The position numbers were made by a program. Shown one piece after another: positions 42,001-48,000 of a stretch of 64,000 bases of DNA (within the stretch, counting starts at the first letter, position 1; every line of letters starts with the position of its first letter). The DNA comes from an uncultured Planctomycetaceae bacterium (GTDB lineage: Bacteria > Planctomycetota > Planctomycetia > Isosphaerales > Isosphaeraceae): positions 480,001 through 544,000 of the forward strand of contig CAWIAD010000001.1 of assembly GCA_963833985.1 (NCBI GenBank). The letters run 5' to 3'.

Positions 42001-45000
42001 CGTTTGACCTGGATTGAGACCGGGGGCAGGCATTCCTGCCTGCCGAAGCAGGCCTGCGCTGGCCGCCAGCTTGTCCAGAGAGGCAAGCCGGTTGCGTGGA
42101 AACCCGGTCCGGGCGGTTGTCCCAGGCAACGCCATGGCGGCCCGGACCGCGAGATCGAGAATTCCGTTCCATCGCATTGCGCCTGGCATTCGCGAGCGCT
42201 CTCGTGTTAAACTCTTTCCTGGAACGCCCCCGCCCGGTCTGGCCGTCCCCGTGAGGCCGACGAGCGGTGCCGCCAGCAAGGGTTCCGGCCTCGGGACTGG
42301 CCGTCGCAACCCGCGTCTCCATCCTGGCTCGCCGTCTCCGGCGAATTGACTGCGCCCCATCGGTTTGGTTCCTTCCATGGCTAGCGATCGAGATCTCTTC
42401 GCCGAAGAGCAGACGATGGTCACGATGAGCTTCGGCGAGCACATCGAGGAATTGCGCGTTCGATTGATTCTGGCCCTCATCGGCCTGGGGGTCGGCGTAC
42501 TCATCGCCTTCATCCCCTACATGGATCTCGGCTGGCGGGTCATGAAGAGCATGGAGGCTCCCGCGGCCGATGCGCTCGAGCGCTTCTATCGCAATGAATA
42601 CGACAAGAAGGCCAGGCTGGCCGAGCAATCCCAGGAAGTCTCGCCCACGCTCCAGGCCATGATCCCCGCAGACTCGTTCGTCAAGGCGCTCAAGGAAGTG
42701 GCACCCGACCTGCCGACCCCGCCGGCCGAGCAGCTCGCGGGGAAAACCATCAACTTCCCGCTCCGGTACAACCAGTCGACGTTGATCAAGGCGACGCAGA
42801 GCTCCTCGGTGATGATCGACAAGACCTTGATCTCGCTGGGTCCGCTGGAGACGATCACGATCTACTTCCTGGTCTGCCTGGTCACGGGGCTCGTCGTGGT
42901 GAGCCCCTGGGTCTTCTACCAGGGCTGGGCATTCGTGGCCGCCGGCCTGTACCGGCACGAGCGGCACTACGTGCAGAAGTACCTGCCAATCTCGCTGGGC
43001 CTGTTCCTCACCGGCGTGTTCCTGTGTTTCTTCCTGGTGCTGCCGCTCACCCTGGGTTTTCTGCTCGAATTCAACGTCTGGCTGGGCGTGGCCCCCACCC
43101 TGCGGCTGAGCGAGTGGATGAGCTTCGCGACAATGCTGCCCCTGGTCTTCGGGATCGCCTTCCAGACGCCGCTGATCATGCTCTTCCTGGAGCGGATCGG
43201 CATTCTCACGGTCGACGACTTCCGGGCCAAGCGCAAGATGGCGATCCTGGTCATCACCGTGGCCGCCGCCGTTCTGACCCCCGGTCAGGACCCGATCAGC
43301 ATGACCCTGCTCGCCGTCCCCATGATCCTCCTCTACGAACTGGGCATCCTGCTGGTGGGCTCCAGCAGGAACAAGATCCTGGCCCGCACCAGGTCGTGAG
43401 TTGCGTCAGGTATGTCCAGCGCAGTGTCCACTGGTGCCCGGTCGCTGCGCTTGACGCATCCTACAAATGCTCACACTTGTCGTCACCAGCTGTGTCGGGT
43501 GTGTCGAGCGCAGCGACGACGCACCGATTCGCGGACCGGGCTTCCTCACTGGTCGGGCTCACGCCCGAGGTTGGGGGCTGCGCCCGTGAAAACCACGTGC
43601 TCACGCACGTGGCCATAGGCCATGCGCGCCGAACGCCAGGTCGGGCGGAGCAGCGACGGGGGGATGAGCGTGACGAGGCGCGATGCAGGTCGGGCTCACG
43701 CCCGAGGTTGGGGGCTGCGCCCGTGAAAACCACGTGCTCACGCACGTGGCCATACGCCGCAGAGTCCATGGCGCTGGCGCACGTGGCCATACGGGCCAGG
43801 CGGCGGGACGTGCGGACCGGGGGCCCGGCGATCGGTCTGATGCGGCTGGGTGCACGTCGGGCTCACGCCCGAGGGTGGAGGCTGCGCCCGTCCGAACCAC
43901 GGCCTGACGACCGTGGTCACCGGTGCCAGACGACGCTGCTGTCTGGAACGGATTCACCCCAGCCGGGAGGTGCCGTGACCACGCCCGTGGAATTGCCGTG
44001 ACCACGCTCGTGAGGGCGTGGTTCGGACGGGCGCAGCCCCCAACCTCGCCCGTGAGGGCGACCCGGTTCAAGGGCTGGTCGGGCTCACGCCCGAGGTTGG
44101 AGGCTGCGCCCGTGAAAACCACGTGCTCACGCACGTGGCCATGCGCCGCAGACTCCATGGCGCTGGCGCACGTGGCCATGCGCCCGGGCTCCAGGTGCGT
44201 ACGGTGCGTCCAGCGCAGCGACGACGCACCAGTCTGCGGACCGGGCCTCCTCACTGGTCGGGCTCACGCCCGAGGTTGGAGGCTCCGCCCGTGAAAACCA
44301 CGTGCTCACGCACGTGGCCATACCTCGCGGACACCACGTGGAAGCGAGCGCCGCGATGTTCACAAGGCCCCGGACGGAAGCTGTTGCGCAGGGTGCGTCC
44401 AGCGCAGCGACGACGCACCGATTCGCGGCCTGGGCTCAGGCGGAAACGGTCGCGACGATGTCCGCAACGCCCCGGACGGAGCGACTCCAGGACGTGCGAT
44501 TGCAGGCCAGGTGCACGCACCGGCACGCAAGCTTCGCGTGCCGAAAGGGCACACCTGCCCGACGGCCGGGGAAAAAAACAAAAATCCGAGTTTTCGCGAT
44601 TCTGGGGCAGTTTTGGACGGATCCTCATAGATAGACGGCAGATCGCGGCGCACCGGCCGCTGGCTCGCCGAAGGGGGCCGCTCCTCGGTGTACCGCCGGC
44701 CAGGGCCGCGCTGCGTACCGTACAGAGGTCATGCACCCCAAGTAAAGAGAGCACACCGTGGCCACCGCAGCCCAGATCACAGCCAATCGCCGCAACGCCG
44801 CAAAAAGCACGGGGCCGAAGAGCGACCAGGGCAAGGCCCGCGCCCGGCTCAACGCGCTGAGGCATGGCGCCAACGCCCGCATCGCCATCCCCGTCCTGCC
44901 CCAGGAAGATCCCAAGGAGCTCGCCGAGCGGATCTTGCAGTGGACGTTCGAACTCGTGCCGCGCAACGACGTCGAACGCACCCTGGTCGGCCATGCGGCG

Positions 45001-48000
45001 CGCATCGACTGGCAGATCGACCGCGCCGAGCGGGCCGAGACGGCTTACCTCGCGGCTCGCGTCCACCGCCAGCGCGACCGCGACGAGGCCACGCGGCTGA
45101 AGCAGGCCCACATTCTGGGCCGCAAGCTGCTGGACACACTCGACCCGCGCGAGCGGTTCGGCAAGGCCGAGTACTACGACGACATGCCGGCCGTGTTCCT
45201 GGCCCGGCTCGAGCAGCTCCCCGAGGGCTGCCGCTGGCTGCTGGCGCGGTGGTCCGAGTTCCGCAACCTCATCGACGTGCGGGCCGCCTGGTGCGAAACC
45301 GACCACTACCGGTTCCTGCGGCTCATGGGCAAGAGCTTCCTGGAAGGCATGATCGACCCGGCCGCCAACCGCGTGTTCCAGGCCGTCGATGCGATCAAGC
45401 CGGATCAGGGCCGCGAGCTCTGGGAGCTGTTCCGCAACATGAAGGCCAGCTCCGGCCCTTATTTCAGCGGCGCGATGCCGTGGCGGCGCCTGTCTCGCCC
45501 GCCGGCGAACGCGAAAGAGGGCTGGGAGGTCCTCAGCTCGATCGTGGACGAGGCGATCCACCGGCTGGAAGCGCGGCTCGCCGAGCACGAGGACCTGGAG
45601 CAGATCGAAGCCGACGCCGAGCCCGACCGCGCGGTCTTCGCCGCCAGCAAGGCCGTCGCGGTCCTGCGCCGGCACCAGGGCGCGCTGACCCGCGAGCTGC
45701 TGCGTACGCTGACCACGCTGTCGAAGCTGCAAAAAGCCGAGCTGGGCGCCGACAACAACAACGAGGCCGACCGCCTCCCGATGCCGGTTGTCCATGAGCC
45801 GCAGATCGGCCCCGCGCCCGAGCCGGACGCACGTCAACCACACGATGAATCGCGCAATGGCCGGAATGAAGGGGATGGTCCCGGGATGGCGTCGAGAGGG
45901 GGCATCTCGCCGCACGCAAAGGTCTGCAAGACGGTGGGTTGCGCTGCGCTGACCCACCCTACGGGTGGTTCACCACGAGTTTCTCGGAGTGTCTTGAACG
46001 AAGCCAATGTTTTGGCGATGCAAGTTGAGAGTGGCAAGGAGGATACAGCCGTAGCGGAGCGCGACCGGCGGCCAGAAGGAAGTCAATCGGGCACGCGCCT
46101 CGGGCAGGATGCGAATGGAGGGGAACAGCCGGGAATGGCTACAGATCGCCCGGGAATGGGAAGTAAGGAGACGATGACAAGCATGAAGAGGGGTATCTCA
46201 CCGCACGCAAAGGTTTGCAAGCCGGTGGGTTGCGCTGCGCTGACCCACCCTACGAGTGGTGCTCCGCGCGTTTCTCAGAGTATCCTGAACGAAGCCAATG
46301 ATCTGGCGACGCAAGTTGATAGTGGTAAAGAGGATATAGCCGTTGCGGAGCGAAAAGGGACGTCAGAACGGAGCCAATCGAGCACGCGCCTCGGGCAGGA
46401 GGCGAATGGAGGGGAACAGCCGGGAATGGCTACAGATCGCCCGGGAATGGGAAGTAAGGAGACGATGACAAGCATGAAGAGGGGCATCTCACCGCACGCA
46501 AAGGTCTGCCAGCCGGTGGGTTGCACTGCGCTGACCCAGCCTACGGGTGGTGCCCCAGGAGTTTCTCGGCGTGGCTTGAACGAAGCCAATGATCTCGCGA
46601 TGCAAGTCAATGGTGCAAAACAAGATAAACAACCATCTTAACCATCTTCCCAAGATGAGAGGCTTGAACGAAGCCAATGATGACCGGGCCGATGTCAAGC
46701 GAGGCGGTGCGGTTTTTGTGTCGCGGGCTCCCGCACATTTCCTTCGAGGTCGGCTTCGGTCGATCTGGGTGGTCTCGACCGGTCAGCCACTTTACGGCCG
46801 GCGGCTCCAGGGCCTCCAGGCGGCCGGTGCGTGGCTCCGACCGTCTCGCAAGCGTTAGCGGGTCGGCCGGTGGATCGGTGGAGATGCTTGCGATTGCGGG
46901 AGTGAGGACTTAAGTTGAGGATCGGCGACGGTGGCACGGCAACGGCCGAAGCAAGATGCGGTGGTCATCCCCCTATGAGATAGGTCCGGCGCGGCAGATG
47001 AACGAGGTGACGATCGGGCTGATTGGACTGGGGACGGTGGGCACGGGCGTCGCCCGGCTCTTGACCGAGCACGCCGGGAGGATCGCCCGCCGGGCAGGCC
47101 AGCCCCTGAGCTTGAAGTGGGCGGTGGTGCGCGACCTGTCAAAACCGCGCGGCGTGCCGCTGGACCAGGTGCGCGTGACGACGGACATTCGGAAGGTGAT
47201 CGACGATCCGGATGTCGCCATCGTGGTCGAGACGATGGGCGGAATCGACGCGGCCCTGCGAATGGTCCTGGACTGCCTTGCGGCCGGCAAGCATGTCGTC
47301 ACGGCCAACAAGGCGCTGCTGGCCGAGCACGGCCCGCAGATCTTCGCCCAGGCGCGGGCGGCAGGCCGCGCTGTCGCGTTCGAGGCGAGCGTGGGCGGGG
47401 GGATCCCCATTGTCCAGGCGCTGGGCGTATCGCTTGCGGCCAACCAGGTGCAGAACCTGGCGGCGATCCTCAACGGCACGTGCAACTACATACTCACGAA
47501 GATGATGCACGAGGGGCTCGCCTACGGCGATGCCCTGAACCAGGCCCAGCAACTGGGCTACGCCGAGGCCGATCCGACGCTCGACGTCGACGGCACGGAC
47601 ACCGCACACAAGCTGGCGATCCTCGCTCAACTAGCCTTCGGCGTCACGGTGAACACGAGCGACATTCCGCGGCAGGGAATTGACCGGCTGCACCTCGCGG
47701 ACATCACGTACGCAGCCGAGCTGGGTTACACGGTGAAGCTGCTTGCCCTGGCCAAGCTCACTGCCGCCGGCCTGGAGCTGCGCGTGGCACCCACGCTGGT
47801 GAGGCGAGGCACGCCGCTGGCCGAGGTGCGCGGGCCGTACAACGCCATCAGGGTGGTTGGCGACGCCGTCGGCGACACCTTCTTCTACGGCCGAGGCGCC
47901 GGCATGATGCCCACCGCTTCAGCCGTCGTGGGCGACCTGATCGACGTTGTCACCGGCCGGGCCCTGCTCACTTCCCGGGTGCTCGACCTCTGGCCCGAGC

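Follow-up and report, generated by a model that had tools for sequence, protein, structure and literature searches.

The window, a stretch of 64,000 nucleotides from the genome of an uncultured Planctomycetaceae bacterium (G000), carries between tatC and hom a cassette built around one plus-strand gene, which we refer to as gene A. The open reading frame (44758-46641) encodes 627 amino acids, among which a conserved, all-helical core of 331 residues (44758-45750) begins with a 45-residue N-terminal module (44758-44892) of the pattern N-x-x-N-A-x-x-S-T-G-P-x-T-x-x-G-K...N-A-x-K-H-G. Immediately upstream, a plus-strand segment (44498-44757) that occurs at all 11 copies of gene A and is scarce elsewhere probably represents the promoter region. 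Further to the left lies a variable extension (43433-44435, plus strand), an array of three-hairpin repeats termed L (starting at 43552, 43689, 43856, 44078, and 44257, plus an inverted one at about 43999-44063) together with REP-like R2 palindromes; the genome holds 122 matches to L, which at other sites follows the gene for a subclass-2.3 HUH transposase, and 96 to R2. Behind the conserved core, 2.5 plus-strand tandem units of 291 bp (45899-46627), each consisting of an inverted REP (R1), a box module, and purine-rich filler, are translated through as the low-complexity tail of the protein. The plus-strand box modules lie at 45997-46086 and 46288-46377, both with 79-bp spacing and the former with a degenerate second box, and a third box pair at 46579-46677 has 88-bp spacing. 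The last box of this pair is the target of an IS110-family element, of which about 110 bp of the right end (83% identity) persist as a relic on the minus strand (46677-46787). The hom promoter region (46880-46998, plus strand), conserved in relatives, sets the right-hand limit of the insertion.

Searches with tblastn and HMMs recovered 11 near-identical subfamily A copies, 5 subfamily B copies, and one A-like fragment in this genome, and the copy numbers match those in the genome-wide survey's note. The A copies are 95.1-100% identical in DNA (95-100% in that note), and a recount of their codon variants gave 69 synonymous versus 27 non-synonymous changes, an excess in the same direction as the 57 and 20 reported. 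The empty site was also confirmed: in 12 of 13 relatives from the genus, 129-212 bp separate the matches to tatC and hom, versus 3.6 kb here. The frameshift noted in 5 of the 11 A copies proved to be a common 1-nt deletion at codon ~244 that sits on different haplotypes and may be a lesion or an assembly error; a small share of a single DNA read run, covering 266 bp of the gene start, displayed no differences and no joints. In this genome, to which the count is confined, L repeats stand ahead of every A copy (11 of 11) and of 4 of the 5 B copies. Each cassette carries a single gene, with no integrase, att sites, or replication module of the kind that defines satellites such as PICIs. Inspection by eye of cassette ends (11 A and 5 B copies here, 6 copies in G040), made without a near-isogenic empty site, revealed neither terminal inverted repeats nor a target-site duplication. 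Further, the A unit is not bounded by inverted REPs, as the shared sequence passes from inverted R1 through the module in all 11 copies. Rfam searches of 11 loci returned one tRNA. Two ideas about the layout were dropped: an orientation fixed by replichore, because both strands are interleaved along both contigs on inspection, and an integration host factor (IHF) site upstream of the gene, which was found in 12 of 30 loci versus 14 of 30 control windows.

The box module consists of AACGAA[C/G]CCAA, an A/T-rich IHF-like center, an inverted half box, and a second box, and its spacings differ by one helical turn. There are 58 box pairs at 78-82 bp and 17 at 88-92 bp in the genome, compared with 1 and 0 for a reversed-pattern control, and spacing peaks near 69, 79, and 90 bp were seen at GTDB loci. 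Boxes follow all 11 A genes, as had been claimed. Three further claims about the boxes did not hold: the spacing is not fixed at 79 bp, a value found in just 18 of the 58 pairs of the 78-82-bp class and one of several peaks at the GTDB loci; the gene-less box pairs number not about six but ~57 of 75 modules; and the B copies do have a box, because all five bear a single degenerate one at the gene end. The coding-strand preference needs correcting outside Planctomycetota, where antisense boxes are frequent: 13 of 30 loci have sense boxes, 7 antisense, 3 both, and 7 none. Relative to box 2, (C/A)AA-N4-TWR occurs at 40-41 nt in 40 of 75 modules and the inverted half box at 23-24 nt in 29 of 75. 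Enrichment of IHF-like sites is modest (14 of 128 spacers versus 5.4 in shuffled sequence; 5 of 75 versus 2.6 in this genome).

The two sides of the module differ markedly. Among 38 terminal modules with a relative elsewhere, the median shared sequence was 425 bp upstream versus 35 bp downstream, and in 24 of the 38 sharing stopped within 60 bp downstream. The module thus behaves as the imprecise downstream end of repeated units, whether or not the gene is present. Purine-rich filler follows 6 of the 11 A copies and is weak across all modules, and the idea of a general purine-rich tail behind every module was dropped after comparing them all. Two further readings were dropped by inspection: the box as a sigma-54 promoter, in which the GG-GC distance is 10 and not 9 as in the box, and the TAA...TTA pair as an integron attC site, for which it is too short and lacks L boxes.

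The family is far wider than Isosphaeraceae, to which it had been assigned: it comprises 16,806 clusters at 50% identity, is one of the larger unannotated bacterial protein families, and reaches 26-52 matches in each of five copy-rich Acidobacteria genomes. Of 67 sampled proteins, 66 have their closest relative within their own genome, and genome by genome the copies sit at unrelated housekeeping loci. Cassettes range from 0.8 to 3 kb; those of the Acidobacteria span ~800 bp from promoter to stop codon and have no common repeat ends. Promoter, gene, and box module have spread as copies to numerous scattered loci, and this has happened independently in many lineages. The survey's view of lineage-specific mobile cassettes that lack a recognizable transposase and end in a DNA-level signal is borne out by the empty site, the copy analysis, the end asymmetry, and the same-genome kinship. 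The family is encoded in 36 of 49 genomes with box pairs, a set chosen by those pairs and skewed to related soil lineages, versus 10 of 150 in a phylum sample, and the box accompanies the gene at 9 of 10 low-copy loci. Box counts are also raised in several phylum genomes that gave no gene match, and one copy-rich relative, G001, has 18 family matches but one exact box, with no box core at 7 of 13 copies. Residence on phages or plasmids was dropped; the family is nearly absent from phage records, with no hits in searches of phage collections and six loci in a further search. In the freely readable main texts searched, we found no published description of the box sequences, the family, or an orphan or selfish small terminase, nor any in literature on Isosphaeraceae multicopy genes, HGGxSTG, or IS110 in Planctomycetota; a search of the Solibacter repeat literature, including PMC3174227, likewise yielded no description.

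The protein core combines the basic N-terminal helix-loop-helix module with a long helical hairpin, to which residues ~71-125 and ~298-330 contribute, and with a helical insert peculiar to the subfamily, and the minimal family form is a hairpin of ~130-150 residues. Only N13, S17, G19, P20, G25, and N32 are invariant in a 25-row cross-phylum alignment, with Lys and Arg residues nearly so. Neither Pfam, NCBIfam, nor PHROGs gave a useful hit or any transposase family for the window protein, and 23 diverse members gave only weak hits to small terminase (TerS) and to HGGxSTG. A profile search of PDB sequences found nothing at E < 1, Foldseek found no match at E ≤ 0.001 in the PDB or BFVD, and 30 look-alike clusters in the ESM Atlas have no common Pfam family. 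The best VIA-align matches (Z 8.6, rmsd 4.1, 91 aligned; Z 9.0, rmsd 2.9, 84 aligned) concern the hairpin only. Because the N-terminal module was not folded separately, these searches prove neither a new nor a known fold. A homo-tetramer model of a 194-residue homologue scored 0.71, compared with 0.00 for the best of three controls, the mark for this score being one that 20 of 30 solved pairs but also 1 of 23 single chains attained in a calibration unlike this job. Its runs agree in at least 88% of contacts with pLDDT of at least 69; every chain makes contact through two distinct faces, and residues 1-41 do not figure among those listed for the interface. The model supports a side-by-side, two-faced homo-oligomer as the predicted form of the minimal homologue.

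The N-terminal 45 residues match a gene in the small-terminase position, directly upstream of the large terminase (TerL) and portal genes (hhalign P = 98.9 over 45 columns). This link had escaped the survey's note. The match is confined to the 45-residue module. The TerS-position protein also contains the invariant STGP motif, and one family member reached E = 0.003 against a TerS PHROG. The family protein resembles the DNA-grabbing subunit of phage packaging machines in this module and perhaps in the helical-hairpin oligomer predicted by the model. No structural match to a solved TerS was found, no conserved TerL-docking tail is evident in A, and Terminase_6N has no match in G000, G013, or G001. 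None of the family genes whose neighbors were inspected sits just ahead of TerL as part of packaging genes: the window copy is flanked by tatC and hom, the 39 neighbors of 10 low-copy loci include no TerL family, and in two viral contigs the gene lies tail-to-tail with TerL. The HGGxSTG domain (NCBIfam NF041373) likewise has the STGP motif, and 2 of 23 members hit it at E = 0.23-0.35, but the best reached 11.2 bits against a 29-bit cut-off, the window protein gave no hit, and the family has its own hairpin core and lacks the Cys/His zinc-binding part.

At phage lambda cosB, gpNu1 and IHF act together, with binding sites arranged around an IHF site near the cut end, and the box module may be likened to it. 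Our preferred reading, to which we give a probability of about 0.35, is that the cassette is selfish: its protein, akin to a small terminase, would recognize the module and guide a borrowed nuclease there to create an end. Binding of the protein to the module and mobility of the cassette are what we infer here, and the protein would be a TerS-like oligomer whose basic N-terminal modules grip the boxes, phased along bent DNA, in the manner of gpNu1 and IHF at cosB. It would flag the site for a nuclease acting in trans, for which a phage large terminase is the most plausible candidate, the cut falling about 0-100 bp downstream of the module. The cut end might be joined illegitimately, at times with purine-rich filler, or might re-invade and produce tandem modules. 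The opposite side would recombine through abundant repeats such as the L/HUH arrays, giving variable left ends, and gene-less modules would be non-autonomous passengers. In favor of this reading are the end asymmetry, the phasing and fixed internal positions of the module, the co-occurrence of gene and box, the TerS link, the tetramer model, the L arrays ahead of the cassettes, and the presence of Ku in four of five genomes. Counting against it are the box scarcity in G001, the restriction of the TerS-position match to 45 residues, the lack of a docking tail and of Terminase_6N, the near-absence from phage records, the antisense boxes, the modest IHF enrichment, the weak filler, the raised box counts without the gene, and the bias in the set of 49 genomes.

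The main rival, possible but doubtful, takes gene and module as cargo or terminal parts of elements with a Y1/HUH transposase, which would be of subclass 2.3 in this genome and a RAYT or another Y1 enzyme elsewhere. They would be moved in trans by one-ended single-strand transposition, with the protein an accessory as TnpB is to TnpA. In its favor, 14 of 33 HUH-2.3 islands carry the module, on the same strand in all 14 and in the order HUH, L, (gene), module in 13. Cassettes here carry HUH-2.3 end sequences in addition to L repeats: three A cassettes lie directly behind the HUH-2.3 gene (a stretch of 2,951 bp is common to two of these at 95%), and the iterated HUH left-end motif opens two more A and two B cassettes, making 5 A and 2 B with the gene or motif. 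HUH-2.3 matches occur in all five copy-rich Planctomycetota genomes but, with one protein query and in assemblies of unstated completeness, in none of the five copy-rich Acidobacteria genomes, whose cassettes lack shared repeat ends. A single Y1 match was seen in each of G040 and G049. Also against this rival, none of the other scored marks occurs in 17 of 54 module islands, and the module end lacks the precision of an HUH cleavage site. Set beside the TnpA(Y1) subclass 2.3/TIRYT, RAYT, and REP/REPIN systems of Quentin et al. 2018 (PMC6006769), the cassettes are similar in lying within HUH-2.3 end repeats and REPs with fixed polarity but differ in that the protein has no HUH or Y motif, the module forms no hairpin and ends imprecisely, and expansions occur where no HUH-2.3 match was found. 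The fixed polarity is with subclass-2.3 HUH elements and not with RAYT, an observation new with respect to the survey's note.

An extension of the preferred, small-terminase-like reading seems to us unlikely: the cassette would be a minimal chromosomal "packaging parasite", a small-terminase-like gene with a phased cos/pac-like site through which the large terminases of incoming phages are hijacked, so that each of dozens of chromosomal sites starts packaging and transfer of host DNA and cut ends seed new insertions. Packaging of chromosomal DNA mediated by SaPIs independently of the helper phage's TerS is described in PMC12829572. The cassettes differ from TerS-encoding satellites (PICI/SaPI) in their size of 0.8-3 kb, in having no integrase, replication genes, or TerL, in being scattered over the chromosome in dozens of copies, and in being nearly missing from phage collections. 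Were this extension true, it would describe a widespread class of mobile element that has no catalytic enzyme of its own and is parasitized by RNA-guided IS110.

We consider it improbable that the protein is itself a transposase or recombinase with unrecognized chemistry. Lineage-specific expansion throughout the family whatever the helper content, purifying selection among copies, and the invariant N, S, G, P, and N with near-invariant K and R would suit this. However, the 25-row alignment conserves neither an acidic triad nor an HUH pair nor a tyrosine (at a position where many members have Tyr, the window copy has His), the STGP motif recurs in the TerS-position protein, the minimal form is only a hairpin, and no target duplication was seen. 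Checks against transposase and recombinase folds gave generic helical-hairpin matches only. Of similarly low probability is a host-useful DNA-binding or stress protein duplicated with its binding sites by repeat-mediated recombination, or by template switching at protein-bound roadblocks, with no dedicated mobility pathway. This would agree with the conserved upstream pattern in G001 and other relatives, which we take to be an ECF-like promoter, with the position of copies in islands rich in REP, IS, and HUH pieces, and with a single-copy homologue without the N-terminal motif in five genomes of family f33, adjoined in four of them by the same fatty-acid gene cluster. Against it stand the unrelated housekeeping loci occupied in each genome, the five frameshifted A copies, and the one-sided end pattern, which calls for a site-specific process. 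Retroposition, in which host group II intron reverse transcriptases (RTs) copy transcripts running past the module to yield a fixed 3' end, purine-rich tails, and 5' truncation, is very improbable. In its favor, the copies are 3'-anchored and 5'-variable, 6 of 11 A copies have purine-rich sense-strand tails, G000 has 24 RT matches, and five module islands have an upstream motif that is presumably boxA-like, but the copies include the promoter, helical phasing argues for double-stranded DNA, boxes are often antisense, G040 has one RT match, and no target duplication was seen.

MITEs and other non-autonomous IS derivatives are moved in trans and have terminal inverted repeats and a target duplication; the many gene-less modules are similar in kind, but the cassette has one defined end and neither of these features was seen. 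Of the tested classes of IS, MITE, REPIN, and satellite, none fits the cassette, which would change if Y1 enzymes move it. The end signal and the spread without a recognizable transposase point to an undescribed way of DNA spreading. For the unannotated family, there is now a concrete candidate site as its partner on DNA, a defined end, and a connection to phage packaging that can be tested. If the small-terminase-like reading is true, soil Planctomycetota and Acidobacteriota hold sites, in the tens to hundreds, at which DNA cutting and transfer are directed, which would bear on the growth of their large, repeat-rich genomes. Under the rival explanations, too, there would be a new protein-DNA recognition pair, a natural IS110 target, and a previously unnoticed end structure of subclass-2.3 HUH elements.

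IS110 bridge recombinases that target REPs are known (PMC11208160), and the IS110 element here similarly takes the box as its target but parasitizes it and does not move the cassette. Of this box-targeting element only the relic is left in G000. The targeting, which the survey's note had overlooked, is uniform: the element lies within the box at 11 of 11 sites, with a 2-nt CA core.

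Between tatC and hom, gene names that we take from the genome-wide survey's note and from presumed similarity, the window carries one ORF (44758-46641, forward strand). The ~331 residues at its N terminus are found again in G000, the genome under study, as 11 subfamily A copies, 5 diverged subfamily B copies, and one fragment. A distance of 129-212 bp separates the tatC and hom matches in 12 of 13 relatives from the genus, and the hom promoter is kept at the G000 insertion site. The A copies share 95.1-100% DNA identity; with codons 240-248 left out of the count, 69 of their codon variants are synonymous and 27 non-synonymous. 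Five of these copies have in common a 1-nt deletion at codon ~244, on different haplotypes. Two A cassettes (i.e. gene plus flanks) harbor, at a shared position in the R1 REP palindrome, an insertion sequence with short inverted ends and a ~20-bp duplication (C1:1295740-1297232 and C2:6219405-6220896; ~9 copies in the genome), which we take to be IS4-like. A RAYT gene (window 49596-50564; 191.7 bits to NF047646) lies 3 kb right of the cassette and follows a tandem R1 REP array.

With mismatches allowed, same-strand pairs of the box AACGAA[C/G]CCAA in G000 numbered 58 at 78-82 bp and 17 at 88-92 bp, compared with 1 and 0, respectively, for a reversed-pattern control; 18 pairs are attached to A genes, and ~57 stand without one. 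In these 75 modules, a (C/A)AA-N4-TWR element, presumed IHF-like from its consensus, lies 40-41 nt from box 2 in 40 cases, a TAA 55-56 nt from it in 34, and an inverted half box 23-24 nt from it in 29, and the G+C content of the left spacer is 42% versus 65% for the genome. A scan of GTDB for box pairs (required spacing, 66-96 bp) gave at least 120 loci in Planctomycetota, Acidobacteriota, Verrucomicrobiota, Zixibacteria, Alphaproteobacteria, and others, with adjacent spacings peaking near 69, 79, and 90 bp. The IHF-like consensus was modestly enriched in the spacers (14 of 128 versus 5.4 when shuffled, a count that leaves out three loci regarded as coding repeats or chance matches). A spacing series that steps by one helical turn would point to proteins on one face of double-stranded DNA. 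At two loci (L051 and L113), box-like words lie within 9-nt tandem repeats; the pattern has probably picked up another class of repeat there. Further, several gene-less modules (C1:1473251 and 3166581; C2:2421495, 4964322, 1541338, and 5634251; also in loci L230-L243) have a motif resembling the rRNA antitermination boxA 100-200 bp upstream, in some cases behind a sigma-70-like promoter; such modules are perhaps transcribed non-coding units.

For the 38 of 58 terminal modules with a relative elsewhere, copies that are not independent of each other, the sequence common to related modules extends a median of 425 bp on the upstream side and 35 bp on the downstream side. The module therefore marks an imprecise downstream end of repeated units. 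In the window, this end is reiterated as 291-bp units. Beyond the module, purine-rich, copy-specific sequence is found in 6 of the 11 A copies, an effect that is weak when all modules are taken together. The box accompanies the gene in 23 of 30 cross-phylum loci (sense in 13, antisense in 7, and both in 3) and in 9 of 10 low-copy loci, a set overlapping those 30. All five B copies likewise have a box, in degenerate single form. G001, a compared genome, speaks against the association: it has 18 family matches but one exact box, and no box core is seen at 7 of 13 of its copies. Between core and module, the tails of relatives (P0011-P0060; L003, L004, and L028) carry purine-rich tandem repeats of 7 and 21 nt that have expanded. 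Many Acidobacteria members (L260-L275) end in ...AA, presumably akin to a ClpXP degron, and in one subfamily antisense boxes read in frame as GFVP from a fixed start at +423.

Cassettes start in arrays of L, a three-hairpin repeat, in 11 of 11 A and 4 of 5 B copies. L follows the stop codon of a ~345-aa Y1 transposase (17-24 copies or fragments, and 122 L matches, in G000), whose length and motif spacing agree with subclass 2.3 of Quentin et al. (PMC6006769). Ahead of the left end of these HUH-2.3 elements lie reiterated, purine-rich partial copies of the end motif (L199:3720-4754). The elements here have this iterated left-end motif and the L repeat, although that paper describes the subclass without flanking structures and reports no REP-like flanks for it (PMC6006769). 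The module occurs in 14 of 33 HUH islands, on the same strand in all 14, and 13 of these have the order HUH, L, optional gene, module. Movement of the cassette in trans by Y1 transposases, which this arrangement speaks for, ranks second among the readings considered, though it seems to us rather unlikely. The transposase was hit in five of five Planctomycetota genomes; no hit was obtained in five Acidobacteria genomes with 26-52 family matches each. Because these copy-rich genomes gave no hit, HUH-2.3 is a local partner or landing pad and is not required family-wide; Y1 enzymes of other kinds may still play a part. The Acidobacteria cassettes are ~800 bp, running from about -120 to the stop codon, with 80-96% identity within subfamilies, and no duplication was seen at them.

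Window 46677-46787 matches a repeat with many near-identical copies in G012, a compared genome. This repeat forms one end of an element of 1.6 kb, which codes for a 339-aa recombinase that we assign to the IS110 type from motifs presumed diagnostic. In all 11 fetched loci where its end is recognizable, the element, a parasite of the box, is inserted at GAAC[G/A]AA[C/G]C-CA, and the CA core is repeated at its far end in the eight G012 copies. IS110 elements target repeats such as REPs via a short core (PMC11208160). The insertions independently attest that the box is a DNA site conserved in many copies. Segments in the element's non-coding end (L230-L243) resemble the core of the box and may be bridge-RNA guides.

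The AlphaFold2 model of the protein is all-helical (pLDDT 90.6), and its N-terminal helix-loop-helix and hairpin are kept in the model of a 194-aa homologue. Across phyla, only Asn-13, Ser-17, Gly-19, Pro-20, Gly-25, and Asn-32 are invariant, with Lys-26, Pro-66, and Arg-87 nearly so; no catalytic set is recognizable among the conserved residues, and we consider it improbable that the protein is a new catalytic enzyme. The first 45 residues align (P=98.9) with the product of a gene directly upstream of the large terminase (TerL) and portal genes on two viral contigs, the two proteins differing beyond that point, and 1 of 23 members gave a weak hit (E=0.003) to a small terminase (TerS) PHROG. 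A four-copy model of the minimal 194-aa homologue scored 0.71 versus 0.00 for the best control (runs sharing at least 88% of contacts; pLDDT at least 69). In the calibration, which was unlike a four-copy job, 20 of 30 solved pairs and 1 of 23 single chains attained the mark. In the model, one copy contacts two neighbors through different faces, as copies do in TerS rings, and the interface residues named do not include 1-41. This predicted assembly supports oligomerization.

Against the defining features that were tested, the cassette does not qualify as an IS, MITE, REPIN, PICI, or bona fide TerS gene; in its working, it would most resemble TerS with its packaging site. We favor, tentatively (probability roughly 0.35), a scheme in which a TerS-like, non-catalytic oligomer would mark the multi-box module, a site that is phased and probably bent, and another enzyme would cut just beyond it, where the end is ragged. 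This is the simplest account of these features taken together. The cut end would be joined illegitimately (Ku is present in four of five genomes), and the opposite side would recombine via repeats. A phage-encoded large terminase would be the obvious cutter, since SaPI-mediated packaging of chromosomal DNA functions with a terS-deleted helper (PMC12829572). Terminase_6N had no match in G000 or in the compared genomes G013 and G001, so a terminase would need to arrive with an infecting phage.

The family is widespread, with 16,806 representatives matching at E<=0.001 (phmmer). It has matches in 14 of 14 genus genomes and, besides G000, in 10 of 150 genomes of an even phylum sample (21 candidates scored per genome). 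A significant gene match lay inside 10 of 132 loci searched, 40 of which were short. A genome search that set out from 50 of 80 flanked loci, picked for taxonomic spread and mostly gene-less at the locus, showed the family to be encoded in 36 of 49 genomes (up to 52 matches). Phage records gave no family hits, plasmids gave four partial hits, and viral contigs had the family at six loci. In a 90-protein sample, the best hit lay in the same genome for 66 of 67 proteins from multi-copy genomes, and a quick tree needed 11 label changes, the fewest possible for 12 genomes, versus 45 when shuffled; because the sample comprised top hits from distant genomes, these results show clustering, not rates. 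Duplication of a gene useful to the host would be another source of such copies, an explanation to which we give little credence. No description of the family or the box was found in the main-text literature searched. A single-copy homologue (f33; L244-L248), without the N-terminal STGP motif, lies in four of five genomes beside an acp/fabZ/fabF-like cluster that presumably resembles the anammox ladderane-associated one, and is possibly a domesticated member. Minimal members (~130-150 aa) occur in alphaproteobacterial-type islands (L256, L257, and L093): the first two are tail-to-tail with TerL, with a box at the junction and ParB-methylase, RecE-like, and ERF genes nearby, and the third has an ERF-like gene nearby.

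Finally, retroposition of the cassette is the least probable of the explanations considered. G000 has 24 reverse-transcriptase matches; ~9 copies of one such gene are each interrupted at the same position by a ~2-kb insertion, and both G000 contigs start within a copy of this interrupted gene.
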